64,000 nucleotides of DNA from Blasia pusilla (GCA_050084515.1 CM114271.1:36270001-36334000); one strand, 5' to 3'. Positions 14,106 to 64,000 are shown, numbered from the stretch's first letter. Made by a program: numbers and translations. Notes: generated from the letters alone by a model not told the origin.

Positions 14106-16711
14106 ACAAAATTGTGGACTAACCGCTTTCAATAAGACAAGAATCAAAAGCATAGACGTGTTTGTAGCAACCCGGATAGGACGAAACTACAAATTTTATC
14201 TAGAGCCAACAGAATGTGTCATCAGACATCACTATTGATACTCTGAAAGAGAAGCACATATCTCTGTGGCCGGGCAACAACCGTACATGTCACCAACCTG
14301 CCGATTAACACAGATATTACAGCCACACGCCCTTGCAGTAGAACTTCTATCTGAAGAAGGTTTGTGAAGTCTAATACTCTCAGAAACAGGTGGATGGGAG
14401 CTGATAGGAAATAGAAACTGCACCAGACAGGAGCAGGGAAAACAGGGCATCAAGGAGTCAATTACACACGGAGTTGGATAATCAGGTTGAAATAGAGAGA
14501 TCAGTTTAGAAGTGGTCATTATAAGCATGCATGAATAGTCCCTACAAAAGCAGGGCATTGAGAGCGCAATATGACATTACAGAAGAGCATCTAACTCGGC
14601 AAGTAAGTGAAGCGAGATAGGGAGACTTGGAAGACATGAAGGGAAGATCTGATAGATGGTTGGAAGGTTTGAAGTGGATGTCAGTATTCAGGAACCATCG
14701 TGGAAGTGCACTCATAGCAAGAACCGCCGGAAACTGTGAGAATGAAATAAAGTGCAGCACCAGAAATCAAGATAGAGATACAATCACCCATGGCAAGTCT
14801 CTAGTGCTTACAGCAACTGACTCTCGAATTTCAGTAAAGGTCTGGTAGTGGAAAAGAGATGGACAATGGTTTAAGAACTCATTCTCAAAACTCAAGCCAG
14901 ACTAGGTCATTGATCCATCCACAATCAGTTGAGAATACTTCCCAGAGCATCAACACATACACATTTCTGAGAGAACATCTCATTGTAAAAATCCATAGAC
15001 ATGAGAATATCTCATGTTGAAAAACCATTAGGAAATATGGTTCCTCAACAACAATCTTAACAGTGCGCACAAGCACAAAATCTTATCCAGAGAGACTAAT
15101 GGAACAGCACACCACTGAACAGAACTCAAAGGCAGAATCCAATGATAAATCAGGCATATCAGGCATTGCAGCAAGAGGACTGAGTGACAGACCCCAGGAA
15201 TCCAGAATAATAGGACAGAGACTCCTGCCAAATCTGTTTTTAACCAGAATAAATTCAATAGCTTCTCAAGAGCAGGCTAGGGTACAAGGACTGTTGACCT
15301 AAGAGTAAAAGCAACCATAGATAATCCTCAACAATCAGTAATTGCAAGAGCTATTATCAACCTAGACACTATGCCTAAATTATGAGCAATCCAACTTCTA
15401 GTGACATAAATTCGCCCAAACAAAGCAACCGTTTGCAAACATTTCCCCTCCATTCCACACCACTCCTGCTCAACCTACCAAGAAATATACAGGCACAGGG
15501 CTCTAATCGACATACCTGCAAACTATGACCAGGTTTGCCCTTGAAAAGTAAACCTGCAACCCAGGAGAGTGTGTAATCAGATCTCCAAAAGATGGTGACC
15601 TAGAGACGCAATCTACTTATTCACTGCCTGCCTTAGCCAATGGACCCTGCCCACATTACGACCAAAATGGAAGAGTCCAAACCAAGAGAATAAAATGCAG
15701 AAATACAAAGGCACAATACTCGGAGTATGCCCTACTGGAAATCTCAGTTTAAATTTCATTCAGGTGCAAGGTCCTTACCCAATTGACCATATACACACTA
15801 CAACCTAGGTGGAAGAGGGTGCAAGACATGACAGTCGGACGAAAAGGAGATATACACAGGTAGAATACTAACTCAAATATGCACCTCTGCAAAACTCAGA
15901 TAAAGTTTCATCCAGGTCAGTCTTCAAAGGATTGTCTGTGTAATCAAAACAAATGACAGCTTTATGTTTCAAAAAAGGTTGTAAAACATGTGACAGAGAT
16001 CATCTGCCATATATGTCAATATCCCTTTATCTCTTATTTGTGCACATACAGCAAGTAGCAACCAGATAAGCCTTTCTTTTAACGTGCTCCGTGGAGACAA
16101 TACAAATAATAGCCTCATGGTCGAATCTAGATCATCAGAATTGATTTTTGGAAAAATTGATCCAAAGTAGGACAGTCCGAAGTGCTGATGACAACGGTTC
16201 AAGGACAAGGCCTACGTTTGAAGAGCAAATTGATGAAGACAATACCAGTCCTACATTGATAAACACAACCATTCAGGAATCGGAACTCATCATTAATAGT
16301 TAAGGATTAGGGCTGAAGCCTTTCTTCGTTTCATCCTCGAGAGCACATTCTCTACACTGCAAACCTGTGCTAGAAATTTACAACACGGACTCTCCGAAAA
16401 GCTTGGGTTCTTGGGCGTAGTAGAAGTAGAATGGACATGTACGTATGGCACTATAAGTTGTGTAAGCTGCCTTCAACACACCGAAGACGTTATTAGGTTC
16501 ACATTTCTTGAACCTTGCAATCTTCGAGGCATCCCAAGCCCATTCAGTGGGCACAAATGGTATGGAGAATATACACAAGATTTCCACCTGCTTTGCTTTC
16601 GTGCACAAATTCGTAGAAGATTTTTCAATGCTGACTCAAATCTAGCTACTATGCTCATAAACCCGGAGGCAATAGCAGCTACAAGTCAAAAGTATTATAA
16701 TGGCCCAATCT

Positions 16712-18025
16712 CTAAGGGCCACGATATCTTACACACGGTAGACAACCTCGAGGTTGAGAATCAGTGGGAATCATGCCACCTCCTTTGCTAGTGTCAATTG
16801 CCTCTATCAAAGCAACCACTTGCGCCATCTCCGGCCGTTTATCTGGATTCGGATCCCAGCACTTCCTCATCACATGTGCCAATGCGGTTGGACAACACCT
16901 CGGGATCGTCGGTCTCAAATTCTGGTGCACGACCGCATGTGTCATTTCCGTGAAGCTGAGGTCTGGATAGGGCATGTCACAGCAGTAGATCTCCCACAGA
17001 CATATTCCGAAGCTGTACACATCACATTTCCGATTGTAGGGTTTACCATCGAGAACCTCTGGGGCCATGTAGCCCAGGGTCCCCGTTTCACCGGTCATGT
17101 CTTTGGGATTGGATGCTTCTACCCGCGCTACACCAAAGTCAGCTATCTTCACATTCCTCTTGGTGTCCAGCAGCATGTTCTCACTCTTCACATCTCTGTG
17201 CACAATCTTCTGCGAGTGCAGGTACTCGAGCCCACGGGAGAGGTCTAGCGCCAGCTGAATGACGACTTTGAATGTCAGTTTCCTTCGCCGATGCCGGATC
17301 AAATAATCCTTCAGAGTACCTCCGGCAAGGTACTCCACAACCACGCAGCATATGTTGGATGCGACATGAACAAAGCCATCGCTGCCTCTCTCGAAGCTGG
17401 GAATTTGCAAGTTGGAACTTCCAATGGAGGCTCCGACGAATTTCGTCACATTGGGATGATCCAGCTTGTGCCAGACCTCGACTTCCTGCTTGAAGGCATT
17501 CCGGTAGGAATCAATTTGGACTTTGGACATGGTATCCTCCTCACCCCAATCCAGTAATTTGACTGCCACGTCCTGCCCATCGTACACTCCCTTGTGGACA
17601 GTACCGTACGTCCCGTGGGCTATCACATTCTTCAGGATCAGCTTGCTAGGATCGATTTCCCAGTCCTTCAATTTTCTACCAGAGACGGCACCCGTGCGGT
17701 TGTTCCGACTCCGATGCTTCTCCAGGGCCGCATCCAAATCCGCAAGATTCAACAGATCTGCTCTTACGTACAAACCCTGTGACTTCTTCGAGCTCTCGGA
17801 TCGTGAATGATCCAACACTTTCTCAGCCCCCGCAATCGATTCGGAACTCGCTGCTTCACCCTCTCCTCCATTCTCAGCTACAACCTTCTTCTCCATCTCA
17901 ATTCCCCTTTCTCTTGAAGGTGCAGGGCCAGCGCTTGCGCCCACCTCCTCCTTATTGTCTTCGACCCGCACCTCTTCTCGCTCATCTTTACCTTTCACCT
18001 CTGACTCATCCCCTTCTGCCACCAT
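16712..18025 (-). CDS. Raf-like (subgroup C) Ser/Thr/Tyr protein kinase resembling Arabidopsis CBC1/CBC2; intronless CDS, 437 aa
   Basis: Complete kinase domain: WEIDPSKL, GTYGTVHKG, VAVKLLDWGE, HRDVKSENMLL, DFGVAR, GTLGYMAPE. Subfamily-typical WEIYCCDMPYPDLSF and C-terminal AIDTSKGGGMIP...RGP*. Confidence 0.95.
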   Translation of the reverse strand: MVAEGDESEVKGKDEREEVRVEDNKEEVGASAGPAPSRERGIEMEKKVVAENGGEGEAASSESIAGAEKVLDHSRSESSKKSQGLYVRADLLNLADLDAALEKHRSRNNRTGAVSGRKLKDWEIDPSKLILKNVIAHGTYGTVHKGVYDGQDVAVKLLDWGEEDTMSKVQIDSYRNAFKQEVEVWHKLDHPNVTKFVGASIGSSNLQIPSFERGSDGFVHVASNICCVVVEYLAGGTLKDYLIRHRRRKLTFKVVIQLALDLSRGLEYLHSQKIVHRDVKSENMLLDTKRNVKIADFGVARVEASNPKDMTGETGTLGYMAPEVLDGKPYNRKCDVYSFGICLWEIYCCDMPYPDLSFTEMTHAVVHQNLRPTIPRCCPTALAHVMRKCWDPNPDKRPEMAQVVALIEAIDTSKGGGMIPTDSQPRGCLPCVRYRGP

Positions 18026-20005
18026 ATTTATCGACCGTTTGAGTTCCTCCCGCTATGTTTCTCAACAACCTGGCTAGCTAGCACTTGTTCCTATTCCAAC
18101 TTTGTCCCTTCCTTTCCTCCCCTATCACTTCGGTGGGCAAAAGACAGGAAAGACCCCTTTTTGAAAGAGAGGGACAGAGGGCACCTCGTCTCTTCTCCCT
18201 GCCTGGGAATGGGAATATTTATCCCTGCCCCACCTGGGGGGGCCTGTTCTCTCTCTCTCCCTCTAGGCCAATCTTAAGCAGAGCGGCAACAACCACGGCC
18301 ACAGTTGCACTGAATTTTTGCAATGCCTCGCCCCCACGATACTTGCTTCTCTCCTCTCCTTTCGCAGGGCATCAGCAGGGGGAGGTTTTCTCTCTCGTTC
18401 TCTCTCTCCTAATGCAGCTGCTGTCTGCAGCACTGCACCGATTCGTCCTGTCTATACTCCACTCCAGCCATCATAATCTAATTCGGCCTCCCGAGTCGGC
18501 AAACTCTACCACTCGGACGAACTCTAGCCGTGGACAAAACACTCCTGATTGTGGGGAGACCGCTGGGTTAGGGTTTTCAATTCTCTGACCACACTCCCAT
18601 CGCAACTCCTGCTCGTCGGTATCCTACACCTCCATCATCATCGCCTCCGCCACTCGGACTGCAGCGAATGCGAACTCCCGTCTCCCCTTCTCCTTCTCTT
18701 CTGTTTCCCGCGCTCGCATACTCTCGCTCATCCCACCCCGGCCCAGCTCCCCTCCGTCCCCCACACTCTGCATAAACATACGCAAGCTGGACGCAGCAGA
18801 TACGAGTGGCAGTAATCTCACCACCGCCACAACTGCACTGCACTACACAGTGAGCAGCACCTCCCGATCCCAAATGTTGTTCGACCGAGTCTGTCACTCG
18901 CCCACTCTCTCCGTCTCTCTGCCCCTCTCTCTCGCTCGCCTCCTCTCCGCCCGAGTCACCAACAATTGCGCAATTTCGCTCGCCAAACCCATTCACAGAT
19001 CACACGCACTGTGGAGGGAGCCCCCAACGGGGCCGGTTTTGGCCCGCGGGTTTTTTGGATCTCTATACCCCTCCCTTTGTATCCCGATGGGTTTTCCATC
19101 CAAGTTTCTATTAAAGTCGATAGATCCTGTGGCGCACAGCAGATTACAGAGCCCCTCCCGGAGCTTTTGTAGGGGACGGGTTAATTACTGTGATTTGCAG
19201 TGACCTTGAGGCCCGCCACCGATTGACGAAGCTCCGGTGAGGGAGGGAGGCTTGTCCCTGCCTGACGTGGAGCCCGACCAACACCATTCTTTCTTCCTCC
19301 AGCGGCTGCCCTCACCCCACCACCGCACGCGCCACCCGGCCCGCATTTCCTCGGCCGGGATTCTTTTCGTTTCGGCTCTTCTTTCTCCAGGTCCTGTCCT
19401 CCTCTCCCCTCCCTCCCAGCTCCGCCACCCACGGTTGAGTAAGCGAATTCAACCACAGGTCAGAAACCACACCAGATCCATCCCCGCTAACCCATCCCCT
19501 GCCCTCCCTGAGGCGGTCACGGCCCAAGATGTGTCCCCCGGCTGAACCCATCGGTCGGTCGGTCCGTGGCTCTGTGGTTACGGCCGTCGAGAGTTGGACG
19601 GTGGCGACGATGTACCGTGTCCATCCAGATCGTACATGGCGGACGGAAAGAACTGTTGCAGTCGCCTCCCCGATGAGGTGTCTGCAGTACGGGTCGATGG
19701 AGCTGTCGTTGCCTTCAACGGACGGATATTCACCGTCACGTCTCGTTGCCACGTCGTCACCCCCATCCATTTGTGGCGAATGGATGGGGGTGGATGGAAA
19801 GCAACGTACATATATCTAAACTTTCTCTTCTTTGTTAAATTCTTCATTCATGCTTCAAAGATTTTGTATCTTTAGAAGACCAAGAAAGATTTTCTTTTCA
19901 TTATGGGAAGAGACATACTTCTCATTTTCAACGGGGCATATGAGGAGAAAGGGCAAATTTTGAACAAGAGAGGGTTTGGGGAGGGGAGGACTTCTTAGAA
20001 AAAAA

Positions 20006-20179
20006 TCTATATTATGATTGGAGAGTGCGTTCTTGATGTGCAAACACCTTGTGTGCTTGACATGTTGCAATTGGACAATAAGAAAATGTTTCCCATAGAC
20101 AACAAGAATTTTTTTTGAATTGGTGTAGAACATGATTAGTCCTCCTTCACTCTAGTGCATGGCACCGGATGTACACTAG
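20006..20179 (+). mobile_element. Non-autonomous mini-Helitron (174 bp)
   Basis: A|TCTATATTAT start, subterminal hairpin GTGC-ATG-GCAC (20155-20165), and CTAG|T end, so it is inserted between A and T. Similar to the copies at 45076-45447. Confidence 0.7.
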
Positions 20180-20496
20180 TTTAATATTAAGTTTGAGCAC
20201 ATCTATCTATTCTATCAATGAAAGATGCTCCTCATGATGATGGGTTCATTGGATGAGATTTGCTAAAAAAAATCTCTTCAAATAAAATCATTCAACGTCG
20301 GTGAGATCTAGTAGAGTGCCTTCGTGAGTAGTGGAAGACAGGCTCAGTAGGTCGAGGATGACCTGTTGAGGCCCCGGGAAACCTGAAAGAGCAGGTTTAG
20401 AGCCAAAACGAAGGGGAAACCTGCTCTCTCAAGTTTCCCCTTCGTTTTGGCTCATTTGGAGCCATATTGAGAAAACGTACTATTTTAGATAAGAAC

Positions 20497-20832
20497 CATT
20501 TTGAGTATATGATCGACTTTCTATTTTTGGTAAGTGGCCTTGATCTCTTACATCAGGTCAAGAGCCAAGGAGGTGACTTGGGAGCATAGGTTACCATGGA
20601 GAGAGCTTGGGAGAGGGGAGGGGTATATCTCAAGGAGAGAGAGCTTGAGAGCTCATTCTCTCTTTGTTGAACCTCTTGGCACGAGGCCTCGGAGCTATGG
20701 TCCTGCTTGCCTTGTGTGTGTAACCCAAGCCTCTCATTAGGAGAGTAGGTTTGGTTTGACTTTGAGAGAGACATGTGAGAGTGTACACATGTGAGAACTA
20801 TGGTGTTGTGAGAGAGATTGGATCTTATTTTA
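20497..20832 (+). repeat. LTR segment of the gypsy element (the 5' LTR probably begins near 20235)
   Basis: 336 bp matching the reverse complement of 29257-29592, with about 22 differences counted by eye. 20300-20520 also resembles 38985-39170. Confidence 0.85.
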
Positions 20833-23800
20833 CAAAGAGAGAATGAGTGAGTGATAGAGCTTCATGGGGGAGCTCACTGGTTTTGCAAGTTGGGGATCGT
20901 ATTCCCCGTTTAGCGCCGGCATGGGGCAACCTATCCCCATACTCAATCCCTATCAAAAATTATGCAGCGCTTCCGTGCGCCACTCTTCCACACGAAAAAT
21001 CGGCAAAGGAAACATCACAAGTAAGCGGCTCTTGCTCCGGTGAGCACTCCCATGAACCGCTAAACGGGAAATACGATCCCCAACCTCCAAAACCTGATCA
21101 AAAAGCTACCATGTAGCTTTCTGATTTGTGTTCTCACATGTTTTACATTTTCGTTGGGAGAAATCAGCGCGGAAGCGTTGCCAAATTTTGTGTAGGAGAA
21201 AGAGATATTGGGCTTTACGACAGTCCCTATCACTTTTTACTGGAATTTTTTGTTCCAAATATTTTTTTACGCTGTTGTAGATCGTGAATCTGCGCACGTT
21301 GTACAACAAATAGTGCATAATTTGGAGTTGCGAGCAAAAAGTTATGGTCAATCTTGCAAAACTGCCATTGCTAGGCGATTTTTTGGGTTAAATTGTTCAA
21401 ACCCTAAACCAACCGCCGAGCCAGCAGCGGCCGTCGCCATCATAGTCACTGTCAACGGTCGGCCATCACCATCAACGGTCCATCGTCCACTGCCACCGCC
21501 GCCTAGCGCTACTCAGAGCCGCGTTCGTCTGTTGTCCACCCTTTGGTTGCCATTGCCGCCATTACAAAGTGGAGGGTCTTCCACAACCACCGTTGATTCT
21601 CTGACTTGCGCCGCCACCACGTACTTTGGGTTGGCCGCCACCGTCATCTTAGTTTCGTCATCAACCAGTGATGGCAGGTGACCCCGGGTTATGGTGTTTG
21701 AGTTTTCATTTCATGTTGCTATGTTGTGATTGGTAGTCGCTCGACGACGATCGAGTACCGTGCCGTGACGCCCGTAGCCGCAATGCACCGCCGATTGCCG
21801 CGTCGTGCCGCTTGTGGCCGCACCGCTTCATCTCGATTGCGGAGCCGCTTCTTCACTAAGGAGTAGAGCGTGTGAATTTCTGATGAAGGAGGTATGCCCC
21901 CGAGTGCCACACCCCATTCGTGAGTGCCGTCCCGTGTCGGCAGTGCTGCACCAGACCGCTAGACCTGCACCGCACATCGAGGAGGTTTAAGCAGCTTCAA
22001 TACGAGAGGAGTACGACTTGCTAATCGGAGGAGTTGTCTTCACGACCAAGTTGGGGTCGAGATTTGCAGTTGCTGAGGAGCGACATCGACATTATTGTCA
22101 GGTTACCCATTCTGGTCTCTTACCCTACATGTGTGAGGGATTTTCGGATATTGGGAAATTATTTGGGATATTGGGTTCCATGCTAATGCTACGAGCATCG
22201 ATGATGTATGGGTTTAGGGGACATAGACTTGTCTGGGATGTCCAGAGTTGAGGATGGTTTATCGATGAGACAATAGATCGGTTGATTTGCCGCACCACGC
22301 TGGTTGTTACTGCAAAGCACATGTCTCAGTGAGAGAGTGTAGATTGACTGCCGCATGTTTAGTTTGAGTGATTGAGGGATTACTCACGAGATTGAGAGTG
22401 ATCGTGTGAGAGGGGTACGAGGGCCATCACGACGTCCTTTCGAGATTTTGAGAGGCAACGTAGTGGACCTGAGAATAGCTCTGGAGGGTTTACGCGGAGT
22501 GGTGCGAGGTTTCGAGGGTGAGAGACCACCTTGATCTCCTTCTATGTCGTCTTCAGATGAGGGGGAGCGTATAGAGGAGTGTGTTAGTGATCCACCGTAC
22601 ACATTGAGTGATCCTACCAGTTGGGCGTACGAGATGGACGACCGGGATAGAGGACCGCGTAGGTTTTTGGGTGTTGTAGGCACTATAGAGCTACACGACT
22701 TCATTGCGGAGTTTAGGAGTTGGTGTGATTCACAGTGGGCTAGGAACTCTAGAGAGTTCAACCCGTTTACATCATGGAACAGTATGTTCCAGCATTTAGA
22801 GGGGGCGCCTATGGACGATTACCATGAGTTCTCCAACAGATCTGCCCAAGAGATTGAGGCATGGCCACTCTACTATGACCCACATTATGTGTCATGGATG
22901 GAGCCGTTCCCAGATGAGGAGGAGGAGTGAGGAGAGGCTAATTCCTCTTCCACTAGTGATGTTTTAGGAGGGGTCACTTGCACTGGAGCAGTTGCACCGT
23001 CTAGTCGGGTTCGTCCCAGGTTCAACCCTGTGGTTGAGTTCTTTGCTAAGTTGAGGGCGAGTTATCAGGGATTACGGAGCATCCATGACTTCCAGAGGTG
23101 CCTGGGTGAGAGTTTGCGTGAGGCTTACACTCGCTTGCGCCGGTTGATCAACGTCACTCAGGGGGTGACAGAGGCTCAGGCTATCCAATCATGGTACGCG
23201 ATGCTGGACCGGACCCTGTGGACACGGGTGCGGGAGGGGTGCGTCTTATGAACACCTCCCCTACATTGAGAGATGTTTTTAGGACCGCCGAGAACATTGA
23301 GCGCAACATGGCGGAGGAGAGCGTAGCCACCATGGGTTCTGGGCGAGAACAGTCATGATTGTCTGCACCATCAGTGAGCAATGTGGACTCCGAGATAGGT
23401 CGACTATGGCACCACGAGCTTAGGGAGGATACCGGAAGGCCATGCCACAGAGACCTGCGCCTTCATATACGGCTCAATAGCAGCCGCCTACGACTACTTG
23501 TTGGTCATGTGATGGAGCCCATCATCAACGCGATTGCACTCGTCAGGGTCATGGACGTGTGCCTCAGCATGGAGGAGGAGATCGTACTGCGCCAGGAGGT
23601 TATCAATGTGACTATTATCAGAGGTATGGTCATACACGCGCTAGGTGTTTCAGTTTACATCCTGAATTACGTCTGGACCAAGGGCCAGAGAGGGCACTAG
23701 AGGGAGTAGCTGATCCAGGTGGGCCTAGAGATCGTGCACCAGATGGTCCCGTTGGGGGATGAGGAGCTGGAGTTTCCCGACAGGGTGGTGGAGCTTCCCA

Positions 23801-25337
23801 TGGAGGAGGTAGAGTCCCACCACCTAGACGCGTCGAGGGAGACGCCAAACGTGAGGCTGCGATGGCTGCTCACATACAGTAGCTACAGGAGCATATTGTC
23901 GGTATGGCATAGAGGTTACCCGATGCCGGATCCGTGGCATCGACATCATATGGAGCAGCTAGAGATATAGAGGATCCTGGTTGGATGTGCAAGGTTGCCC
24001 ATATGGAGGCCGCCGCTGTTGTGACGCATGGAGCAACCGCAGAGTTGGATCCACAGCGAGGGAAATCCAGGAAAGAGACTAGGCTTCCTCAATCTTTCAG
24101 GTTGTCCAAGGCAATGAGGACCCCATCGATGGGTCTTGATCAGAGTTCCTGGAGAGTTGGTGATGTTGTTGGTATGCAGGCACGGAGGGCGATGGGAGAA
24201 ACGAGCGCGAAAACTCCTATTGTTGATGCTCACGAGGGGCATGTGTCGAGCACGTTGTTGGGGACGGCCACCGTTGTGTACCGCGCTCCTTTATTTTCTG
24301 CTTCTGATGTTATGACGTTGGGAGGTACGCCCGCGGAGGTTTTTTGGTTGGCCGCTACGCTATGTGAGCGTGGAGTTGGAGTTCTTACATCACGTTTAGA
24401 GGTGATTACAGAGGAGGTGATGGACCTGCCCTTGGAGCGGATGTTGGGACCATCCACGTCAGATTCATGGCAGGCTGCTGCTTCTAGGATGGCGGAGATG
24501 CCCGCTAGACCCGCGATAGAGTAGGCCATGGTTTCTCCTGGTGTTGTGTTGCTGGATAACCATGGAGAGGTCTTCCACTTGGTGAGTCCCGGAGGTAGAG
24601 CTTTTAGTCCGCAGCGCGTCTTGTTGGATTCAGGAGCGCAACCCCTCATGTTGGGGAAAGCGTCATTCAGAGGATTGGGCTTGACAAGAGCCAATGTGGA
24701 GCGTTTTCCATTCCGGATACAGACATCCTTGGATGGAGTGAGGACCACACAGTATATCACCCAATAGGAGGTCGTGGTGAGGATTTTCCCGGGATATCCT
24801 ACAGATGAGTCCGTGGTGTGAGCCAAAGCGATAGTGACTCATGCAGAGTCCTACAATGTCTTGGTTGTTGGAGCAGTGTTATACCCGATGGGGTTTTCCC
24901 TCGATTACTAGGAGGAGTCAGCGTCCTACAGACCAAGATGGGAGTCAGGTGATGAGCTCCTTAGCTCATTACCCGTTCGATTCACAAGTGTAGTGATCGA
25001 GCAACGGCAAGGAGAGATGGCGACCTTAGCAGCATTGAGTAGTGCCATCACTTGGCCTAGTGATTTGATTGAGGGACATGTTCATGCAGAGGATACTCTC
25101 CTTCTTGACATTTCTATGGAGAGGGGTGTCATGGTAGCCGCATCAGTTCGTGGAGGAGAGGTGCGGCTTTGGGGCTTGACTGAGGAGCTTCGACGCTTAG
25201 CCATTGAGCATGTGCAGACCGCGTGGTGCGAGACATTTGGAGTTGAGTAAGACGGGTCAGAGGAACCCCAGGTAGGCAGGAGTGCTGCTATGATACCTTT
25301 GGACACCACCTCGATTGTGTGGTGCATCCCAGAGAAG

Positions 25338-26290
25338 GGTATTTGGGTGTTGGATCTCTTTGGAGGGATCAGCACTGGGTTAGCTGTTGTTTTGCACGTT
25401 GGAGTGCGCGTGCCGCAGTACCTGTATGTGGAGATTGATGATGTTGCAAGGCGCGCTTCACTTCACCATGTGGCGCTGTTATGCTTCCATTTTCCCGACT
25501 TGTTGTCTACGTCCGCCATTCAGAGTTACTAGAGTTCCCTACCAAGGGACATTTCATTCTTGGGGGCGTAGGACTCGGAGCGGGTAGGGACCATAGACTT
25601 GGTCATTGCTGGTTGGTCGTGTCAGGGCCAATCGAATGTTGGACCAGATAGCGGGTTGGCTGATACTCAGTCTAGGTTGTTTAGGGAGATGATGCGAATC
25701 TTGCGACATTTACATGAGCATCGGTCTTGTTCTCCAGCATACATTTTGGAGAATGTGCCAGTTTTGGGCCATTCTAGGTCCTGCATGATGACGAGTGCAC
25801 ATCAGGTGCGCGCATGGATCAGCCCGGCAGTGTTGTTAGATGCAGCGAGTGTGGGTTCACGAGCACATTGCCTGCGTCTTTGGTTGACCAACTTGGTACC
25901 ACATGAGGTATTGCGGAGGGCTTATGCGAGAGTGGAGCATCCCTCTGATTTGTTGGTGGATTCTATATTGGATTCGGGCCATCGATCACAAGCAATGAGG
26001 CACGATGATCGACCGCCGTTGAATGTGGTCAACCGGATTGGCAGGCCACCAGCCGCCTTTCCCACATTGGTGAGTTTTCCTGCTTCCTATGCATTCAAGG
26101 AGGCCAGACCGGGCTTGGTTTGGGATGACCAGGTACAGAGGTTGGTGGAATTCAACGCCGATGAGCGAGAGCGAGCGATGGGATTCCCCACAGGAGTGAC
26201 AGTAGTACCGTCACTATCAGAGGCATCACGACGTCATGTCTTGGGTCAAGCGATGGACCTAAACTGCTTGACATGGATTTTTAGCTTAGG
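25338..26290 (+). pseudogene. DNMT3-like C5-cytosine DNA methyltransferase domain inside the gypsy pol frame
   Basis: Motif I VLDLFGGISTG, II YVEID, III RDI, IV DLVIAGWSCQG, VI YILENV, VIII RAHCLRLWLTNL, IX ERERAMGFPTGVT, X RRHVLGQAM, in canonical order. Two in-frame TAG stops (25530, 25569). Confidence 0.88.
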
Positions 26291-26597
26291 AGTAGCTGAG
26301 CAGCGTCATTTGAGGATACGACAGATCACAGTTGTTGCGTTGGTGAGCCCCATGCCTATCGAGACGGTTGAGGCAGTGGCTGGGGGCGAGACTCGAGGAG
26401 ATTGACACACTAGGGGTGATCGGGAGAGACATCCTTGGACTTCTTGGGATGTTTTGCAGGTACGCCAGGAGATGATAGCCACAACATTGAGCGTGGTTCC
26501 GGATACTACACGTGGAGATGGGAGTTCAATTTTCCGAGATGGGGTTGCACCATAGCAACCACTGACATCCGCGCCGAAGAGTCCTATCGTAGTCACA

Positions 26598-28900
26598 ATG
26601 GAGACTTGGGAGCCAGATATGGGCCCGAAGTTGACAGGAGGAGAGCGGCGTTGGATACACCAGTTCCTTAGGAGTTATAGGAGTTGTTTTATATTTAGTA
26701 TGCATGATTTGGATACAGTGAAGGGTCCAAGGATCCGCATTGAGTTGTCGAGTGACACGCTGATCTTCCCAGGACCCTACAGGTACAGTGACATGGAGAG
26801 GGCTCTGATTCAGAGTAGGAGCCAAGACTTGGTGGGAGCAAGACTAGTGGAGATGTCGCATGGAGAGTATGCATTTCCGATTGTCATGCCCGCCAAGAAG
26901 GATGTGCATGGCAACAGGAAGGATAGGCGAATGTGTGGAGATTACTGACCTATCAATCGGCAGACGAAGTCCAATAGATATGTCATGCCCACCCCTGAGG
27001 AGATGTTTGATGCGATTGGGCATGCAAAGATCTTCAGTTCATTGGATTTGCGAGCCCAATACCATCAACTGCATATCAAATTGGAGGACATGCAGAATAC
27101 GATATTTTGGGGCATCGATCCTCACGGGAAGGATTGTTTGTACCAGTGGCGGTTCTTACCATTCACGTTAAAGAACGCCCCGGATGAGTTTCAGAGGGTC
27201 ATGGATAGGATCTTGGCAAGTCTGGATTTTGCTAGATGTTATATTGATGACATAGTAGTCTTTAGCGCCACGGTTGAGGAGCATGAACGACATCTAGAGG
27301 AGGTATTTGGACGATTGCAGTTACATGGGCTGAAGCTACATCCAAGCAAGTGCAAGTTCTTCTACAACCAGATTGAGTACTTGGGTCATACGATATACCC
27401 AGAGGGCCTTGGTGTGCAACACACGAAGGCAGAGGCTATTTCACGCATTCCACGCCCTACAGATGTGAGTCAAGTTTGTGCATTCATGGGATTGGCAAAC
27501 TTCTATTGACGGTACGTCAAGGATTTCAGTTTGATTGCGAAGCCGCTAACCTTGATGACCTAGGTGGATCAGGAGTGGCACTGGGGGGATGAGCAAGAGA
27601 GAGCATTTTAGATGCTCAAGGAAAGATTGATGTCCGCGCCCATATTGAGGAGACCGATAAGGGGACGTCCTTTCCAGTTGCATACTGATTGGAGCATGTT
27701 GTGGCTTGGAGCCTTGCTCACCCAACATGAAGATGATGGTAGAGAGTTCATGGTGGCTTATGCTAGTCGCTCGAACAATGCTGCACAGGCAAAGTATAGC
27801 TCGTATGAGGGTGAATGCTTGGCTGCAGTGTGGGCTGTCATACATTTCAGATGTTATCTATTTGGCAATCCCTTTACTAGAGAGCAAGATTGGATCTTAC
27901 AACGAGCCAGACGGTTCGGATGGGAGGGGACACATGTGGTGCGAGTTTGGAAGGATGGTAGAGTGTGTGTGGTGCCTCATCCTTCGTAGAGAGCAGGTTT
28001 GGTGCGTCATGCCCACGAGGAGTTGGGTCATTTTGGAGTAAAGCGGACGTATAGCTTGCTCTAGATACAGTATTGGTGGCAAGGCATAAGATTGACGTTC
28101 AGCAGTTTGTTGCTAGGTGCATGGTGTGTGATTGAGTTTGAGCATCGTTCAATGCTCCAACTCCATAGTTGCATGCACTTACGATCATGGGCTTATGTTA
28201 TAGATGGAGTTTGGATTTTGCAGAACCTTTGCCTTTGACGGAGCGTCATAGTCGTTATGTGTTGGTGATGGTCGAGGCAGGAAATGCAACCAACTCTATC
28301 GAAGTGGATAGAGTTGGTTGCATTGCCAGATAAAGCGAGTGAGGGAGTAGCGTATGCCTTCCTAGATCGAGTGCTGAGTCATTACGGTGCACCAGCTGAG
28401 GTGTTGACAGACCAGGGTACAGAGTTCCGCGGGGAGTTTCAGGCCTTGTGTGATCAGGCACTAATCGACCTCTGCACTACTTCGCGAGATCATCTTGAGG
28501 TGGATGGACTAGCGGAGCGGGTTGTGCGCACGGTGGAGAGAAGACTACGCAAGTATGGCTTGCAGAGAGGTCACCTAAGAGATTGGGACCTTCAGTTGCC
28601 GTGGTTGGCGATGGGATACAGATTCAGCACGCAGGCATACTTTGCGTTTTTATGGCCGTGAGCCAGATTTACCTGCGGCCATTCATCGAGATAGTGGTGA
28701 CGTGTTGAACCTTGATGACCCTGATGTATGGATGCGAGCATGTTCTGAGAGGGCTGAGTTGTTTTGGAGAGTAATACCCATGGCGTTTGAAAACTTGGCG
28801 ATTGCGTGACATCGGGATACATAGAGGTAAGCAACTACTCGAGAAGGTGGTTATCGGCCTACTATCTAGAGGTTTCATCAGAGAGAATATGTCTATTTGC
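26598..28900 (+). pseudogene. Gypsy RT, RNase H (internally deleted) and integrase
   Basis: ORF pieces 26598-26948, 26985-27509, 27612-27989 and 28284-28661 share one frame and carry RT, RNase H and integrase motifs. The tail GYRPTI*RFHQREYVYL ends at 28899. Confidence 0.92.
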
Positions 28901-29128
28901 CCAAACATGTCCAAACCCGACATTCCAGAAGAAAGTTATGAAAGAAATTGGAAACACCAAGAAAGAGGATGTGAGGAGTAAGTGAGCCACCCACCAATGA
29001 CCGCTATGGGAGAATGAGTTCGTAATGTTGGGCCCAGCCCGTATCAAAAGATCCAGAATAGAAAGAGGAATCCCTTAAATCGATGGTAACCCGGTATCAC
29101 TCTATAAGGAGAGCGCTATGTTTGAAAT

Positions 29129-29592
29129 TGTCGTGTGCATACACATCGCTACACAACATACATCGCTGTCACCGAACACACACAAAAACACGCACGATCC
29201 CATGCTAACTCATGGTGTCCAAACAACGAGACAAGAAGTAACAAAATATCTCCAATTAAAATAAGATCCAATCTCTCTCACAACACCACAGTTCTCACAT
29301 GTGTGCACTCTCACACGTCTCTCTTAATGTCAAACCAAACCCACTCTCCTAATGAGAGGCTTGGATTACAACACAAGGCAAGCAAAACCATAGCTCCGCA
29401 GCCTCATGCCAAGAGGTTCAACAAAGATAGAATGAGCTCTCAAGCTCTCTCTCCTTGAGGTATACCCCTCCCCTCTCCCAAGCTCTCTCCATGGTAACCT
29501 ATGCTCCCAAGTCATCTCCTTGGCTCTTGACCTGATGTAGGAGGTCAAGGGCCACTTACCAAAAATAGAAATTTGATCATATTCTCAAAATG
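29129..29592 (-). repeat. 3' LTR (5'-truncated) of the gypsy element, lying in the inverted segment
   Basis: Reverse-complement match to 20497-20832. It ends ...AGCGATGTGTATGCACACGACA, like the LTR-like end at ~41246. Confidence 0.8.
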
Positions 29593-29593
29593 T

Positions 29594-29934
29594 ACATATG
29601 GGATACATCCATCGTCTCTAAGGAACCATAGTGAGAGGTGGCGTTAAACATGCCATATGCGATCATCTTGAACATCCATCACACACTAGCATAGTGGCTG
29701 CACCACGGGCGGAACCACACAACATACACCGCAAGCCTGCAAGAACTATTGCTAAGCTCGGATCAATTGTACCGTCAATATTTGGAAGATGGCATGGCGC
29801 ACAGTTACGCACATGGTCCTTCCAAACCATACCATCACATTCCTCCAATAAGAGAACAACGGATGGCAAAACCTCACGCACTCTCAAGATGGTGCGCCCT
29901 GTAGTCACATCCAAGGTTGTGGGTGTCGTATTTC
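29594..29934 (-). pseudogene. Integrase C-terminal extension with a PHD finger (inverted 3' end of pol)
   Basis: TTPTTLDVTTGRTILRVRE...CMLCGSARGAATMLVCDGCSR*SHMACLTPPLTMVP*RRWMYPIC fits the C4-H-C3 PHD pattern with one Cys>Tyr change and two stops. Confidence 0.82.
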
Positions 29935-29935
29935 G

Positions 29936-32900
29936 ATTGTTTTAACAAGCTCATTCTTTTCATATCAAGTAGGTTTTCTAGTTTTTCTTCCTTCTCTGTA
30001 AGCGCCTATTTTTGTGTACAGGTTTGTTTATGTCAATTCCTCCCAAAAGTCTTCCTTGCTCTTTCAACTCCTTACCTTACTGTTTCGCCCCTACATACAT
30101 TTGCCATCTCCTTAAGGACATGAGAATTTCATATTCTTGAGCCACCTCTTCCGATACCATATAGATCACTTTTCCTTTTCAATTTCTTTTTATATTTTTC
30201 TTATAATAACTTTCAATCATAAATTTGGTGTTGCCTAATCTTCATCTCTCCATCTAAATTTCTTTTGAACGTATTCCACTACTTTTGCTTTGCTCCTTAT
30301 CCTCATGCTTTCTCCAAACCACGTTTTATATGTCTTTCCTTGTCTTCGATAACTTGCCTATTTTTACTTCTATGTCATCAGAGATGGAGTTAGATTTTCC
30401 ATCTACTCGCTTATGTGGTTTTACACCCCCTCCTACAGCCGCAACCTCTCCCCCTAGTTCACCTCCTCATCGTAGATCTCGCCATTTTCCTCCAGATTTT
30501 CCACCCATTACACTCGCTATATTTCTTCTGAATTCTCCTCTTCTCCCTTCTTCGCCTTGTCCTATTGACCCTAATCTTGATCCATTATTACCGAATCCTT
30601 CTACTTTGCCATCTCCACATATCTCATCTATGCCCTTGCTTCCAACTCCCATCTATTCTACCCAAATCTCCCCTCTTCCTCCTCCTCCTTCCCCAACCTA
30701 CTTACCCCCTCATCGTTGGCCATCACCATCTCTTGCACCTCCCACCTCCTCTCCTTGTAACCCTTCTACTTCTCCATTTGTACCAAAGGTTCGTTGCATA
30801 CCTTGTGGTAAGGAGTTTGCTCCTAATGGGATCAAAAGACACCAGCGGTAGTGTCGATCCATGCATAGGCCTTCAATCCCTAACCCGATACCATCTCCTA
30901 CTGCACTCCCCACAACAATTGCTTGGACCTAGTTAAGCCAAATTGATCTCCTTTGCTCTTTCCATCTAGGTCTTCCTCATCCTAGACTCTGCACTCGCAT
31001 TCCTATTGCTCTTCGCCCCATCACCCAACAAGCTTTGCTTTTCCCACAAGAAATGTTAGCTCGTGATCCCACAGATATCAATGCTTGGTATCTCCTATTA
31101 CTCTTCCCACAATGGGTTTTAGTCCTCCCTCCAAGGGATGGTGCAACGGGTCATCGTGAAACCTCCACATGTATTCAACTCTTTATGTATGGGGATTGGG
31201 AGAATCTTCAGAATAAGCATGTATTTCGATTAGAGGCCTTAGATGTGGCTCATCCCACTGAACATGCCAATCATGGGAGGCCTTCAATACAACAACGCCT
31301 TCGACAAAGTCTACTTTTGGGGCATATTGGTGAGTTTTCATGTGCAGCTCAAGCATTGGGTCCTCTTTCTCCGGCGGTTCCAAGTGTGGAAATAGTGGCT
31401 CTCTTAGAAGCTCTTCATCCTCCTTCAAGTGGCGATGCTCCACCTTTTGTGGAAGACTATACAACGGACCTTGACTTGGAGCTTGACTTGGAGGTTTCCA
31501 CAAGGGCTTTTCTGCATACTCCTCGCTTATCAGCAAGCGGGCTATCAAGGATGGTTTTTAAGCATCTCCGCGATTGCTTTATCCCAACAGATTTAGGAAG
31601 TGGCTTTGTCTCTCTATATAAGGTGTGTGCACATATGGCGGCAGGTCGTCTCCCATTCTCTATCTCTAGGCTCTTAGGGGCTTGTCTTTTGTTGGCTATG
31701 GATAAGCCTCCTTAAGGTGTGCGCCCTTTGGCTATTGGAGAGGTTTTATACCGCTTGGTTAGTCGATCCCTATGCTTGCAATTTCATCCACACTTTAGTG
31801 CCCACTTATTTCCTCATCAATTAGGAGTGGCAACTCCTGGAGGTTGTGAGGTTGTGGTGCATGGGATTCGCTCCACTCTTGATATTCATCCAAAGTGGGT
31901 AGCAATTCAAGTCGATGTGGCTAACGCATTCCATTCAATTTCTCATGCGGCCATCTTTGAGGAGTTACGTTGTGCAAGAGGACAACTCGCGAGCCTCATT
32001 CCATTTGTTTGCTCCTTCTATGCCTATGATATGCCCATTTTCTATTCCCATCATGCTACTTCTGGGGAATATAGTATTCTACAATTGGCTTGTAGCACAC
32101 ATCAAGGTGATGCCATGGGTGGCCCACTCTTTGCCATTGCCCATTTTTGTGCCCTTCAAGCATCACCGCAAGCATTTCCATCTTGTCTTTTCCCTTCTAT
32201 TGTTGATGACACTCACATTATAGGTCCTCCTTCTGAAGTGGTTCTTGCTTATACCCATTTCGTGGAGCAACTCTCTTTCTTAAACCTTAAAGTCCAACCT
32301 AGTAAATGTGGAGTATGGTCTCCTTCATGTCTTCCCTCATCATTCACCCCACCTACTCCTGATTTTCCCATCTACATTGAAGGGGTTAGAGTTCTTGGGG
32401 TCCCATTTGGCTTCATTGACTATGTCTCAAAGTTCTTGGATGAGGCCCTTTTGAAAGACATCGAATGGCTTCATTTGTTACCTCATCTAGGGGATCCCCA
32501 AGTGGCTTATGGGATTCTCTCCCAATGTTTTCTACAACATCTTTCTTACCTTTTCGCACTTGTCCTCCCACTTCAAGGTTCTTACATTGGTTGGCCTCTT
32601 TTGATGCTTTTATCTTGGCAACTTTTGGTCAACTTCTTGGCCCGAATACCTTTGAGGGAGAGGATGGTGTCTTTGCTTTATGACAAGCTATCTTGGCTAC
32701 TTCTTTTGGAGGGGTGGGACTGTCCTCCATAGTCGCATCTGCTCCCGCAGCCTTTTTGGGGAGTTGGGCGTTGGTAGCATCGATTATGGTTTCTCCAAGG
32801 AGATACACCTATCTTGATGGATGATATCGCCCATGTAGAGGAGAGGGACTTCTTATTTCAACAAAAATTGAGATCTGCACGAGCTCTTCTTCCTCTTGCT

Positions 32901-33655
32901 ACACAAGCAATTCTACCCCATTTTAGTCAACTGATTATGGAAGGGATTGATCGACTTCAAGAGCATATCTCCGAGAATTTGCATCAAATCAACTTTTCCA
33001 ACATTCTCTCCGAGGCATCATTTAACGCTAATCGAGCTCGTCTAGGTTCATGTGCGGGTACCAGAGCGGGGGCGTGGCTTAATCCAAATCCTCTTATTCT
33101 TCCATTTCGTCTTCCTCAAAGTATATTCTTGACAGCTTTGCGGTTACGTCTTGGACTTCCCCATCCTTCTCTCTTAGGTGTGTCGAATTGTGTATGCGGG
33201 GATGCCATTGATGCCAAGGGTATCCATATTCTCCGATGTGCACATGGTGGAGAATGAACGGCCACACATGATGTCATTAGAGAGGCGGTAGCATCGGTGG
33301 CTCATACTGCAGGATACGCCGTTGGGCAAGAGCAACTCCATGTCCTACCTTCAACCATACAAGCAACCTCTCATCGGAGAGTGGATCTTGTTATGTCTTG
33401 AAGTGGATTTTGGACACTAGGTGATGTGGTGGTTGCTGATCCAACACATTATGACTTGGTATGTCGAGCCGTACATACCAAAGGTTTGGCGGCCAAAGCT
33501 GCAGCAAGAATCGAGGAGTTAAGTTATGTTGTGAGACATGCAACTGATGGATTTATTCCTTTTGCAGTGGAAGTATTCAGTCATTTACATGTGTCTTTTG
33601 ATACTTTCTTGAAAACATGTGTTCACCACTCCCTCGAGAATCATCATCTGGCCCC
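29936..33655 (+). mobile_element. Non-LTR retrotransposon with a restriction-like endonuclease (CRE/R2-type architecture), degenerate, 3'-truncated
   Basis: Pro-rich N-terminus with zinc finger CIPCGKEFAPNGIKRHQR*C; RT motifs RPLAIGEVLYRL, QVDVANAF, HQGDAMGG, IVDDTHI; CCHC CVCGDAIDAKGIHILRC followed by HD and RRVDLV...DVVVADP. No APE-like domain seen. Confidence 0.82.
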
Positions 33656-33659
33656 TTCG

Positions 33660-34130
33660 TGTAGTCCTTCTGCTGAACACCTAACCCACTCGGGTATATG
33701 GTGTGTCCTAAGTACTCAATCTGCTCCTAAAAGAATCTACACTTGCCTGGATGTAACTTGAGTCCATGTAACTGCAATCTCCAAAATATGTCCTCTAGGT
33801 GTCGCTCATGCTCCTCAACCATGGAATTGAAGATAAGAATATCATCTGTGTAACATCATACAAAATCCAAGCCAGTCATAATCCTATCCATCACTCTTTG
33901 AAACTCCGCAGGCGCGTTCTTCAACCCAAATGATAAGAACCGCCACTAATACAAGCAATCTCTCCCAAACCGATCTATCCTCGAGAATGTTGTCTTCTCC
34001 CTATCCTCCAACCTGATAGGAAGCTGATCATAGCTAGCACGGAGATCTAAAGTACTGAATATCTTTGCATGCCCTACCGCATCAAAGATCTCCTCACGAG
34101 TAGGCATGACATACCGATCTAACCTCGTAT
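33660..34130 (-). pseudogene. RT fragment of the same gypsy family as 26950-27430
   Basis: DRYVMPTREEIFDAVGHAKIFSTLDLRA...GLKNAPAEFQRVMDRI...EEHERHLED...LHGLKLHPGKC...IEYLGHTIYP closely parallels ORF 26985-27509. Confidence 0.88.
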
Positions 34131-41818: not shown

Positions 41819-42959
41819 GTAGAGGCCTAAGCATCATCCCATCCCACTAAAGGTGCAAATACATCAATTGTTTTGATGTAGCCTAATTTTGGGGTAAATT
41901 GGTGAGTTTTCAGGTGCGGCTTGAGCATTGGGACTTTTCTCTCTAGTTATTTTTCATAGAGTCCAACCTCTACTTCACCTAGCTTCACCAAAAAAGACTC
42001 CCAAACTTTAGGTTTGCGAGTGGAAGACTCAAGTGATTGTGTGTTCCGTAAGTAGTCGAGAAGCCACCAAACACTAATCGGGTTGAGTCTCCCCAAATGC
42101 GTATTGTCTCCCTAGGAAGCCTCTTCCCCAAATCTTGGCCAATCTCCCCAAGTTACTCGTCTACACCAAAGCACGTTGGTTAATTCTTCAAGGTGTGTCC
42201 TCTAGCTTAAACATGAAACTCGGCCAAACACACATTATGGTTAGTTCCTAGTTCAAAGACTTGAGTGAGTAGGGAGGGAGAGTGTTCCCCCCTCCCCCCA
42301 ACAAGAGTTACTTCTAGGGTTCTATGGAGAAACCCCATCTTCCCTATTATCCCCCTTGGACCCTTGATTTTGCCCTCAACCCAAATGTAGTTTACAACTT
42401 ACGGACCCGCATTTGACTAGTTATCCATGAAGATGGCTTGGTGAAAGCTTTCTGCCAATTATGCAACTCTCGACTCCCTAAACACCTCTTGGAGCTTGGA
42501 CGTGCGTGTCATGTGTCTCATATCTAGTATCCGTCTTGACTCATTGTTTTGATTTTGATGGTTATCTTGCCGCCCTTTGCATTTTGTGATTAGTCTTATG
42601 GCGTCTCGCCCATCTTGACTCATATGTTCCTTGCTTCTTGCCCTTGACTAAGCACTCAACTCCAAGATTTAGTGTTTGAAATCTTTCTTGCCTTGCTTTT
42701 GTCCTGCGAGTAGCCACACGCCTTTCTCGCATGAGATTAGTTACAAGACACGTGCACGTTTTGCTTAGCGTTAGTCGTGTGGCCGGTTCCGCCGCCCTTC
42801 CTAGTCTTGTGACTACTTATTCTAGGTTCTGAATTTGGTGGGTCATACCAAGGTCTTTTCTCCTTGGACTTGTGATAATGAATTGCTTCCCGGATCCCCG
42901 CTAGCGCACATGGGATAGACTTAGCTATTTGTGAGGCTATTCTAAATGAGGACATAGAG

Positions 42960-63255: not shown

Positions 63256-64000
63256 ATGGACCCCTACGCGGTTCAACCCTTTTATGGCATGGAAGGGATT
63301 ATTCTAGTACTTTGAGGGTCCGTCGATGGATGATTACATGGAGTTCTGATCTCTATACTCTGTAGAGATTGATGCCTGTAGGGTGTATTGGGCTCCAAGG
63401 TATGTGTCCATTAGTGGCCGTGAGGCGTATGATGGGATAGTGAGAGCGGAGAGACCTTCACCATCAGCCTGGGGACTAGATGGAGAGGATGGTAGTGAGA
63501 GTGGTGAGGTGGCAGAGACCTCTCGTGGTAGATGACCACCAAGTTTTAGTCCTACAATGGAGTTCTTCCGACAATTGGGGAGGAGCTACCAGGGCGTGCG
63601 GACCGACAAACTGAAGAGTCTACAAGATTTCCATAGGAGATCGAGTGAGAGTCCAAGGGATGCATTCACGCACATGCGACAGTTGATCGTTGTCACATAT
63701 GGGGTGATTGAGGCGTAGTCAATACAGTATTGGTACGTGGTGCTAGACGAGGAGCTACGGAGGAGAGTTTGCATTGCGATGTTGCTTCACATGGCAAAGT
63801 CCACATTGAAGGTGGTCTTTGAGTTGTCTGAGCGCGTAGAGCTCAACATGAGGGAGGAGTAGGTGGTGACCACAGGATTTTCGTAGGATTCAACGGGTCG
63901 CTGAGTAGGAGTAGACCCATAGATATCCCAATATGCATTTGTACCATGAGAGCGGGCCGGTGGGCCTAAAGAGCAGGGCCGGTATTGTAAGCTGATGAGG
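63256..64000 (+). pseudogene. gag fragment of a diverged relative of the gypsy element at 22544-23350; runs off the window end
   Basis: WKGLF*YFEGPSMDDYMEF versus WNSMFQHLEGAPMDDYHEF; EFFRQLGRSYQG..LQDFHRRSSESPRDAFTHMRQLI..EA*SIQYWY versus EFFAKLRASYQG..IHDFQRCLGESLREAYTRLRRLI..EAQAIQSWY. Confidence 0.85.

Follow-up and report, generated by a model that had tools for sequence, protein, structure and literature searches.

A degenerate Ty3/gypsy-type element of the liverwort Blasia pusilla and its retrotransposon family with a predicted DNMT3-like cytosine methyltransferase

In a stretch of 64,000 nucleotides from Blasia pusilla (GCA_050084515.1 CM114271.1:36270001-36334000; hereafter the window) the positions 20497 to about 29915 very probably represent one old and dead Ty3/gypsy-type insertion, belonging to a retrotransposon family that encodes a DNMT3-like C5 cytosine methyltransferase. 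This high probability refers to the explanation as a whole, including the family plan, the expression model and the death of the window copy. The predicted methyltransferase is an integral, family-wide part of the gypsy polyprotein and is located between the protease and the reverse transcriptase (RT). A previous reading of the window, made from the sequence alone (the sequence-only reading), had recognised the element in 23559-28661, a range that turned out to be too short.

Cytosine methylation is the main means by which plants silence transposons. A transposon bearing a silencing enzyme therefore represents a paradox, known until now from dinoflagellates and a single charophyte alga and without an established function. 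If the family is widespread in liverworts and mosses, with an intact first reading frame in Marchantia polymorpha, the question enters a tractable model that offers knock-outs, methylomes and reporter assays.

The element in the window and its methyltransferase domain

The plus strand of 22544-28917 encodes, in this order, gag with two CCHC-like knuckles, protease, C5 cytosine methyltransferase, RT, RNase H and integrase. Based on intact relatives the plan of the family comprises a terminal repeat A1, a leader, a first open reading frame (ORF1; Gag-protease-methyltransferase), an in-frame UAG, a second open reading frame (ORF2; RT-RNase H-DDE integrase-PHD) and the terminal arrangement B1-A2-B2. 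It is traceable in the window by the following features:

20497-20832 (+): terminal repeat A1 (337 bp), matching 29592-29257 of the other strand with 93.5% identity (self-comparison, blastn), of the same length as A1 and A2 of the related locus L056
20833-22543 (+): untranslated leader or unassigned sequence between A1 and the start of gag, 1.7 kb, unlike the 3' end region; may contain an unrelated insertion
22544-23251 (+): N-terminal part of Gag (ORF1) in another frame, starting MSSSDEGE, two stops
23481-24524 (+): C-terminal part of Gag, knuckles at 23499-23537 and 23607-23648 (translation)
24525-24910 (+): putative aspartic protease, DSG at 24627-24635 (translation)
25290-26330 (+): predicted DNMT3-like C5 cytosine methyltransferase, two internal stops (Pfam PF00145; phmmer against PDB, DNMT3A 7.1e-10; family alignment)
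26553-26561 (+): conserved in-frame stop TAG CAA CCA at the ORF1/ORF2 junction (junction survey of 55 copies)
26600-27510 (+): RT with YIDD (RVT_1 9e-24; 58% identity to ORF2 of the intact related element L059)
27560-27980 (+): RNase H (RT_RNaseH_2 3.4e-29, RT_RNaseH 3.2e-18)
27981-28917 (+): integrase with H2C2 zinc domain, DDE core and C-terminal region, frameshift near 28650 (Pfam; L059 ORF2 residues 581-834 and 838-927 in two frames)
28918-29915 (strand switch): inverted segment of about 1 kb with PHD finger, A2, B2 and about 210 bp of flank (contiguous protein coordinates over the strand switch)
29591-29899 (-): PHD finger of the integrase C-terminus, inverted (L059 ORF2 residues 934-1035, 57% identity)
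29257-29592 (-): terminal repeat A2, inverted (self-comparison)
29129-29256 (-): probable repeat B2, the 3' terminus of the element, inverted (L056 B1 positions 51-115 match 29191-29129)

The Pfam search was run on the read-through translation, in which an X was placed at each stop, and returned DNA_methylase, RVT_1, RT_RNaseH_2, Integrase_H2C2 and rve in this order. The match to DNA_methylase (PF00145) covers the residues 701-766 (window 25581-25778) with 26.8 bits at a cut-off of 22, so that the family was found upstream of RVT_1 and downstream of the translated DSG protease, as the sequence-only reading had anticipated for a hidden Markov model scan. RVT_1 was located at 26916-27395, RT_RNaseH_2 at 27582-27878 and Integrase_H2C2 at 27981-28091 (34 bits), while rve at 28296-28484 stayed with 26.4 bits under its cut-off of 32.6. 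The protease and the knuckles of the window copy were not called by Pfam. Asp_protease_2 was detected below the cut-off of 24.3 bits at the aligned position in relatives (22.4 bits in L059, 23.0 bits in protein P0147), and zf-CCHC was called in locus L034 at the position matching the window knuckles, the second of which carries Tyr in place of the expected Cys. The order protease-RT-RNase H-integrase is that of gypsy elements. Furthermore, the integrase is of the DDE type (Integrase_H2C2 and rve); a tyrosine recombinase as in DIRS elements was not found, there being no Pfam match to Phage_integrase in the window read-through or in L059.

The pieces of the polyprotein in 23481-28661 share one frame according to the stop-to-stop reading frames and the read-through translation, which bears out what had been noted for 23559-28661. 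The picture of a single frame broken by point stops held for this part and for most of the stops, which reflect decay. It did not hold for the N-terminus of Gag, where residues 9-215 of the Marchantia protein P0125 match 22649-23248 at 50% identity (tblastn) in another frame, separated by a frameshift near 23250-23460; nor for the integrase, where the second frameshift lies; nor for the TAG at 26553, which is conserved family-wide.

The 3' end of the element is inverted. ORF2 of L059 aligned on the plus strand up to residue 927 at 28917 and resumed with residue 934 on the minus strand, running from 29899 down to 29591. Since the protein coordinates run on across the strand switch, the last kilobase or so (PHD, A2 and B2) belongs to the same element in inverted orientation. 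A second, oppositely oriented element was considered as the source of the minus-strand PHD finger and A2 and was rejected, given the contiguous coordinates 927-934 and the identity of 93.5% between A1 and A2 compared to 75% for the other RT fragment in the window. The two repeats differ by 15 transitions, 5 transversions and 2 gaps.

Ordinary long terminal repeats (LTRs) were not detected in 15000-36000 with a 12-base repeat seed, and blastn gave only the 337-bp pair; apart from it, the 3' end region showed no further similarity to 20000-23000. Instead of the two identical direct LTRs of gypsy elements, the window has an inverted pair, and the relatives L056 and L053 have A1 ... B1-A2-B2. In L056 these repeats lie at 6141-6477 (A1), 14775-14889 (B1), 14894-15230 (A2) and 15230-15344 (B2). 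In L029 two B copies enclose 338 bp and A1 is off the contig; the plan was thus seen in three of the 11 loci examined. Just past A2, window 29191-29129 resembles the B repeat of L056 (74%, E 1e-5). In these relatives the order is the DIRS-like A-coding-B-A-B known from the algal element KnitGypsy-Dnmt3; in the window A1, A2 and a B2-like end but not B1 were found. No terminal repeats were found within the 9317-bp contig of L059, which says little because assemblers often break at repeats.

Ranked against the PDB, the predicted enzyme is closest to DNMT3 by sequence and by fold, a ranking that is not a phylogeny. Besides DNMT3A, the window domain matched DNMT3B (5e-8), DRM2 (0.009) and M.HhaI (0.028) in the phmmer search. 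A family profile built from 15 relatives gave DNMT3A (9.1e-16), DNMT3B (2.3e-14) and DNMT3C (4.9e-14), followed by weaker matches to M.HaeIII (5.4e-7), a plant DRM-type chain (4onj; 3.4e-6) and DNMT2-type proteins (4e-4 to 2e-3). The AlphaFold2 model of the intact L059 domain reached a mean predicted local distance difference test score (pLDDT) of 78.5 and a predicted template modelling score (pTM) of 0.83, and all 33 Foldseek matches listed for it were DNMT3A, DNMT3B or DNMT3C, with target-normalised TM scores of at most 0.81 and about 20% identity. These rankings agree with the DNMT3-like character proposed from motifs alone. In NCBIfam only a sub-threshold match to dcm was obtained (27.4 bits against 100.65), while the intact ORF1 of L059 matched PF00145 with 51.1 bits.

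Because the N- and C-terminal halves of the window domain align to DNMT3A co-linearly (29-215 to 5-171 and 304-344 to 235-275), the circular permutation of the DRM enzymes is excluded, and the canonical motif order described in the sequence-only reading was recovered. Within the family the catalytic residues are kept: motif IV PC(Q), motif VI ENV and the residues of motifs IX/X show no variation or a conservation of 90% or more in three alignments. The window copy reads GWSCQG in motif IV (ggt tgg TCG tgt cag ggc, 25611-25628), confirming the serine codon TCG pointed out before, so that the catalytic Pro-Cys is replaced by Ser-Cys (TCG TGT). In a 21-row alignment (the window and 20 relatives) 90% or more of the rows have Pro here, and the Pro-to-Ser defect is therefore particular to the window copy. 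The Arg-Pro of motif VIII reads Cys-Leu in the window copy.

The window copy is dead, as had been recognised before. In addition to the altered catalytic Pro-Cys, the two frameshifts and the inverted 3' end, its main frame contains 21 stops in 1727 codons (12 TAG, 8 TGA and 1 TAA). Besides the conserved TAG, 20 in-frame stops lie within 23481-28661 and a further two in the N-terminal part of gag. When 26 alignable stops were checked for an origin by C-to-T or G-to-A changes, the commonest residue of the relatives was Gln, Arg or Trp in 11. The observed/expected ratio of CpG is 0.69, compared to 0.55-0.70 in intact relatives. A1 and A2 differ by just 6.5%, yet there are 20 unprogrammed stops in 1727 codons, which seems many for this age; the copy may have been defective already at insertion, or the repeats may have been homogenised.

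Distribution, domain arrangement and selection in the family

A word-index search with a 277-amino-acid reading frame revealed 197 near-length relatives, which include proteins of Sphagnum troendelagicum, Calypogeia fissa, Marchantia paleacea, M. polymorpha and Riccia sorocarpa. Furthermore, 49 longer homologues were detected, among them M. polymorpha Mp_8g17980, Mp_4g09160 and MARPO_0091s0058 and Sphagnum fallax BDL97_09G086500. MARPO_0091s0058 combines PF00145 with RVT_1 and RNase H, and Mp_4g09160 has 18 near-identical member sequences. Relatives are also encoded on 269 metagenome contig stretches, 80 of which were retrieved as loci. The L001-L056 group shares 88-91% identity with a 269-residue stretch of a Sphagnum troendelagicum protein. 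An exhaustive profile search yielded 439 clusters (50% identity) at E<=1e-30 and 1646 at E<=1e-10; the 150 best representatives were all family members. The 20 representatives looked up by name included the Scenedesmus sp. PABB004 'pol' and proteins of Closterium sp. NIES-53/54, and no Klebsormidium copy by name. In public proteomes the domains of the family are annotated as 'DNA (cytosine-5-)-methyltransferase' or as hypothetical, and they can inflate the DNMT counts of bryophyte hosts.

The same domain was found in Marchantia, Calypogeia, Riccia, Sphagnum, Closterium and the 80 metagenome loci, its position being the same in all cases where neighbouring domains occur. The element L059 is intact: its ORF1 (976-5082, 1369 amino acids) encodes gag, a weak sub-threshold protease and the DNA_methylase domain, and its ORF2 (5086-8226, 1047 amino acids) encodes RVT_1, RNase H, Integrase_H2C2, rve and PHD, all above the Pfam cut-off. 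As a separate observation, three loci carry inverted duplications, described as 320-650 bp, in or beside the methyltransferase region (L054, 7656-8630 and 10084-11056; L063, 2190-2510 and 4608-4929; L041, 8846-9313 and 12911-13378).

The six domains of L059 were located in 332 family proteins in order to type their architecture. The order of the window (protease-methyltransferase or methyltransferase-RT; type 1) was found in 55 of them, as in L059, which is in line with the earlier view that the domain is integral and not nested. A second arrangement (RT-RNase H-methyltransferase-integrase-PHD or parts of it; type 2) was found in 96 proteins, the methyltransferase alone in 179 and other orders in two. 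Type 1 comprises members from Marchantia, Calypogeia, Sphagnum and the zygnematophyte alga Closterium, while type 2 is represented by one named case, the chlorophyte Scenedesmus, and many metagenome proteins. P0341 (the Scenedesmus sp. PABB004 'pol', KAF8056149.1), P0305 and P0296 are polyproteins of 1649-3225 amino acids with the order RT-RNase H-methyltransferase-integrase-PHD.

Both arrangements were compared in two trees, which were quick searches. The methyltransferase tree has 58 rows, 27 of type 1 (including the window and L059) and 31 of type 2, subsampled at random from 137 typed candidates. A single branch splits the types with a support of 96 in the Shimodaira-Hasegawa-like approximate likelihood ratio test (SH-aLRT), and none of 500 label shuffles came as low. 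The window falls into a fully supported group with M. polymorpha copies. The RT-RNase H tree, with nine rows of type 1 and 24 of 48 of type 2 (33 in total), shows the same single split (SH-aLRT 99). Neither tree has an outgroup that would order the two arrangements by age.

The ratio of non-synonymous to synonymous substitutions (dN/dS), a calculation suggested by the sequence-only reading, was estimated according to Nei-Gojobori among seven stop-free methyltransferase stretches. The values were 0.143 for L059/L058 (dS 0.25), 0.125 for L059/L060 (dS 1.35) and 0.104 for L058/L060; dS is unsaturated or nearly so in these three pairs and saturated in deeper ones. For comparison, the RT-RNase H region of L059/L060 gave 0.039. 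Between lineages the methyltransferase domain has thus evolved under purifying selection.

As stated in the sequence-only reading, retrotransposons with DNMT domains have been reported in Klebsormidium: de Mendoza et al. 2018 (PMC5890265) describe KnitGypsy-Dnmt3 of Klebsormidium nitens as a gypsy element with a DNMT3-like domain, whose DNMT region has a Ka/Ks below 0.2. According to the same paper SymbioDIRS-Dnmt3 has repeats of the form 'A-coding region-B-A-B' and KnitGypsy-Dnmt3 has 'the same' structure with gypsy domains. Gypsy elements with DNMT3 are also called a streptophyte feature in passing in PMC12344493 and bioRxiv 10.64898/2026.05.21.726589. The element in the window is a land-plant member of the kind already published for a streptophyte alga (PMC5890265). 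A full-text literature search retrieved no paper naming liverwort or moss copies, though supplements, figures and subscription journals may list them. Depending on what the Klebsormidium figure and supplements contain, three features may be new: the PHD finger, the existence of two domain orders and the stop conserved behind the methyltransferase.

It seems rather unlikely that the bryophyte family and KnitGypsy-Dnmt3 go back to separate acquisitions of DNMT3 by different gypsy lineages, that is, to convergence. Recurrent acquisition is the theme of PMC5890265, and the likeness was judged from the published description. However, a DNMT3-like domain in a gypsy polyprotein, the A-coding-B-A-B repeats (seen here in L056 and L053) and a Ka/Ks below 0.2 are shared according to that description, and the type 1 clade already extends to the charophyte Closterium.

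The stop between ORF1 and ORF2 and the role of the enzyme

At every locus with a match to ORF2 the frame was followed upstream from that match, which covered 54 loci and the window. In 46 of these 55 copies the first upstream stop is followed by CAR-YY, the stop being TAG in 33 and TAA in 13; five other loci have a different context at the junction stop. In L059, ORF1 and ORF2 lie in the same frame and are split only by a TAG, followed by CAG TTA. Furthermore, the liverwort proteins P0123, P0125 and P0128 end 90-94 residues past motif X, which is the site of the junction stop.

In plant viruses, leaky stops classically consist of a UAG with CAR-YYA directly downstream; an in-frame UAG also occurs in gag-pol of murine leukaemia virus. 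The TAG at 26553 is not a product of decay, and the predicted enzyme thus ends ORF1 (Gag-protease-methyltransferase), upstream of a probably leaky stop. Because of its position upstream of the conserved stop, the enzyme would belong to the Gag-protease-methyltransferase product and not to the read-through part with RT and integrase, and its packaging with RT and integrase, as suggested in the sequence-only reading, therefore stays a conjecture.

The element RNA would be translated mostly to Gag-protease-methyltransferase, and occasional read-through of the UAG would add RT-RNase H-integrase-PHD. The protease may then free the methyltransferase, presumably produced in the same excess as Gag, and the freed enzyme could methylate the element's own cDNA or the new insertion. 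In this model we infer the read-through of the stop, the release of the enzyme by the protease and the cDNA as its target. The position of the stop suggests a dosage logic, in which the enzyme is made with Gag and not with RT and integrase, and this constrains models of the methylation target. Methylation of the own cDNA or insertion has likewise been proposed for KnitGypsy-Dnmt3 and SymbioDIRS-Dnmt3.

A more far-reaching scenario is possible but doubtful. Gypsy elements with a PHD finger and a DNMT3-like enzyme might form one ancient clade that spans chlorophytes, zygnematophytes and bryophytes. The enzyme would have moved once in the streptophyte branch, from the interval between RNase H and integrase to the end of the Gag-protease reading frame, before a programmed leaky UAG, hence its Gag-like excess over RT and integrase. 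Copies of M. polymorpha with an intact ORF1 (for example Mp_4g09160) may then still be active, and may methylate their own cDNA or insertions de novo. If this scenario is true, genetics could be used to address the long-standing question of how a transposon benefits from a silencing enzyme.

Several observations weigh against the overall explanation given here. The closeness to DNMT3 as a PDB ranking limits the placement of the enzyme in a clade. Pfam detected neither a PWWP nor an ADD domain, the readers of animal DNMT3, in the window read-through or in L059; the element has a PHD finger at the integrase end instead. B1 was not found in the window, and a primer-binding site, a polypurine tract or a target-site duplication was not recognised by eye around the element. 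Most copies are decaying, only seven of 49 methyltransferase stretches (48 loci and the window, each covered by one tblastn alignment) being free of stops. The near-identical Sphagnum-like copies L004, L012 and L056 have dN/dS values of 0.62-0.91 in three pairs, as expected for copies decaying after insertion. Concerning the stop, the context in the 46 copies is CAA-CCC in 38 and CAR-YYA in only eight, four loci of one divergent subfamily (L070, L071, L076 and L079) have no stop at the junction, and the proteins P0130, P0314 and P0348 run from the methyltransferase into the RT unbroken, though their gene models may splice over the stop.

The prevailing CAA-CCC context, the gene models that bridge methyltransferase and RT and the death of most examined copies would also fit a stop that is not read through. 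ORF2 would then be expressed by splicing, re-initiation or a subgenomic RNA, or the stop would have been inherited from a defective master that is still copied. This is unlikely, since the stop is common to synonymously saturated lineages (L059/L060, L034/L067, the Sphagnum-like group and the liverwort window), ORF2 invariably keeps the frame, the stop is followed by two conserved codons and L059 has no other defect in 2416 codons.

The retained domain might not methylate DNA and might serve as an RNA methyltransferase, a nucleic-acid-binding module or a structural pseudo-enzyme of the particle. It is fused to the RNA-binding Gag-protease in the family, and SymbioLINE-Dnmt of a dinoflagellate failed to methylate DNA in yeast, with RNA suggested as target (PMC5890265). 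Yet such a role appears quite improbable, as the catalytic residues of motifs IV, VI and IX/X are kept and the nearest structures are the DNA-acting DNMT3 enzymes, with the tRNA methylases of the DNMT2 type ranking far lower. The proposal that a host DNMT3 gene or pseudogene was copied into or nested in a single gypsy copy, its shared frame being accidental, is refuted by the family data and found no point in its favour: other copies, including the intact L059 and those of Marchantia, Calypogeia, Sphagnum and Closterium, carry the domain at the same position (55 of 332 proteins), the methyltransferase and RT trees divide the two architectures alike, dN/dS between lineages amounts to 0.10-0.14, and the identity to DNMT3A/B is only about 20% and not that of a near-identical host gene.

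Surroundings of the element and comparison with known systems

An intact single-exon protein kinase gene is located at 16712-18052 (-), about 2.4 kb from A1 (Pfam PK_Tyr_Ser-Thr 1e-59). It shares 92% identity with a Marchantia paleacea protein over 79% of its length and 79%, 78% and 76% with proteins of Calypogeia fissa and Riccia fluitans and with MpMAPKKK21, respectively, which places the window in a complex thalloid liverwort (Marchantiopsida) close to Marchantia. LINE-like (long interspersed nuclear element) reading frames were detected at 30933-33257 (+) and 41880-44777 (+), with a match to RVT_1 at 31716-32732 (1.5e-10); the corresponding repeats 31378-33634 and 42940-44777 are 70-71% identical at the nucleotide level. 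The RT fragment of a related element lies at 33670-34131 (-) and shares over 460 bp 75% nucleotide and 71% protein identity with the main copy. A second gag of the family at 63260-63895 (+), 50% identical to the Marchantia protein P0125, is cut by the end of the window. Furthermore, a Copia-type fragment (112-726, -; Pfam Pol_BBD and gag_pre-integrs) and a stretch of low GC content (4001-6000, 0.28 at a window mean of about 0.43) were noticed. The open frames 55031-57352 (-; 773 amino acids) and 51668-52993 (-; 441 amino acids) matched no Pfam family at E<=0.01.

With the leaky UAG of plant viruses and of murine leukaemia virus the family shares an in-frame UAG that parts an abundant upstream product from the polymerase and is followed by CAR-YY(A). 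It differs from the plant-virus signal in that most copies have CAA-CCC, and read-through is presumed for the family. The host enzymes DNMT3A, DNMT3B and DNMT3C are the top matches by sequence and fold and share the motif order and the short region between motifs VIII and IX; in contrast, at about 20% identity, the window family lacks PWWP and ADD, is fused to Gag-protease and is intronless within a transposon.

SymbioDIRS-Dnmt3 of Symbiodinium likewise has A-coding-B-A-B repeats, as seen in relatives of the window element, and a polyprotein that includes a DNMT3-like domain, but it is a DIRS element with a tyrosine recombinase, whereas the window element has a DDE integrase and a gypsy-type RT-RNase H. 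Judged by its published description, KnitGypsy-Dnmt3 shares the gypsy type, the non-permuted DNMT3-like domain in the polyprotein, the streptophyte host, the A-coding-B-A-B repeats of the relatives and the purifying selection (Ka/Ks below 0.2 there, 0.10-0.14 in the bryophyte-type family). It differs in that its host is an alga, whereas the window element comes from a land plant, a liverwort, and has relatives in mosses and Closterium. The Scenedesmus protein KAF8056149.1 has a homologous methyltransferase (260 bits to the family profile), a homologous RT and a PHD finger at the integrase end, but its methyltransferase is located between RNase H and integrase and not between protease and RT.

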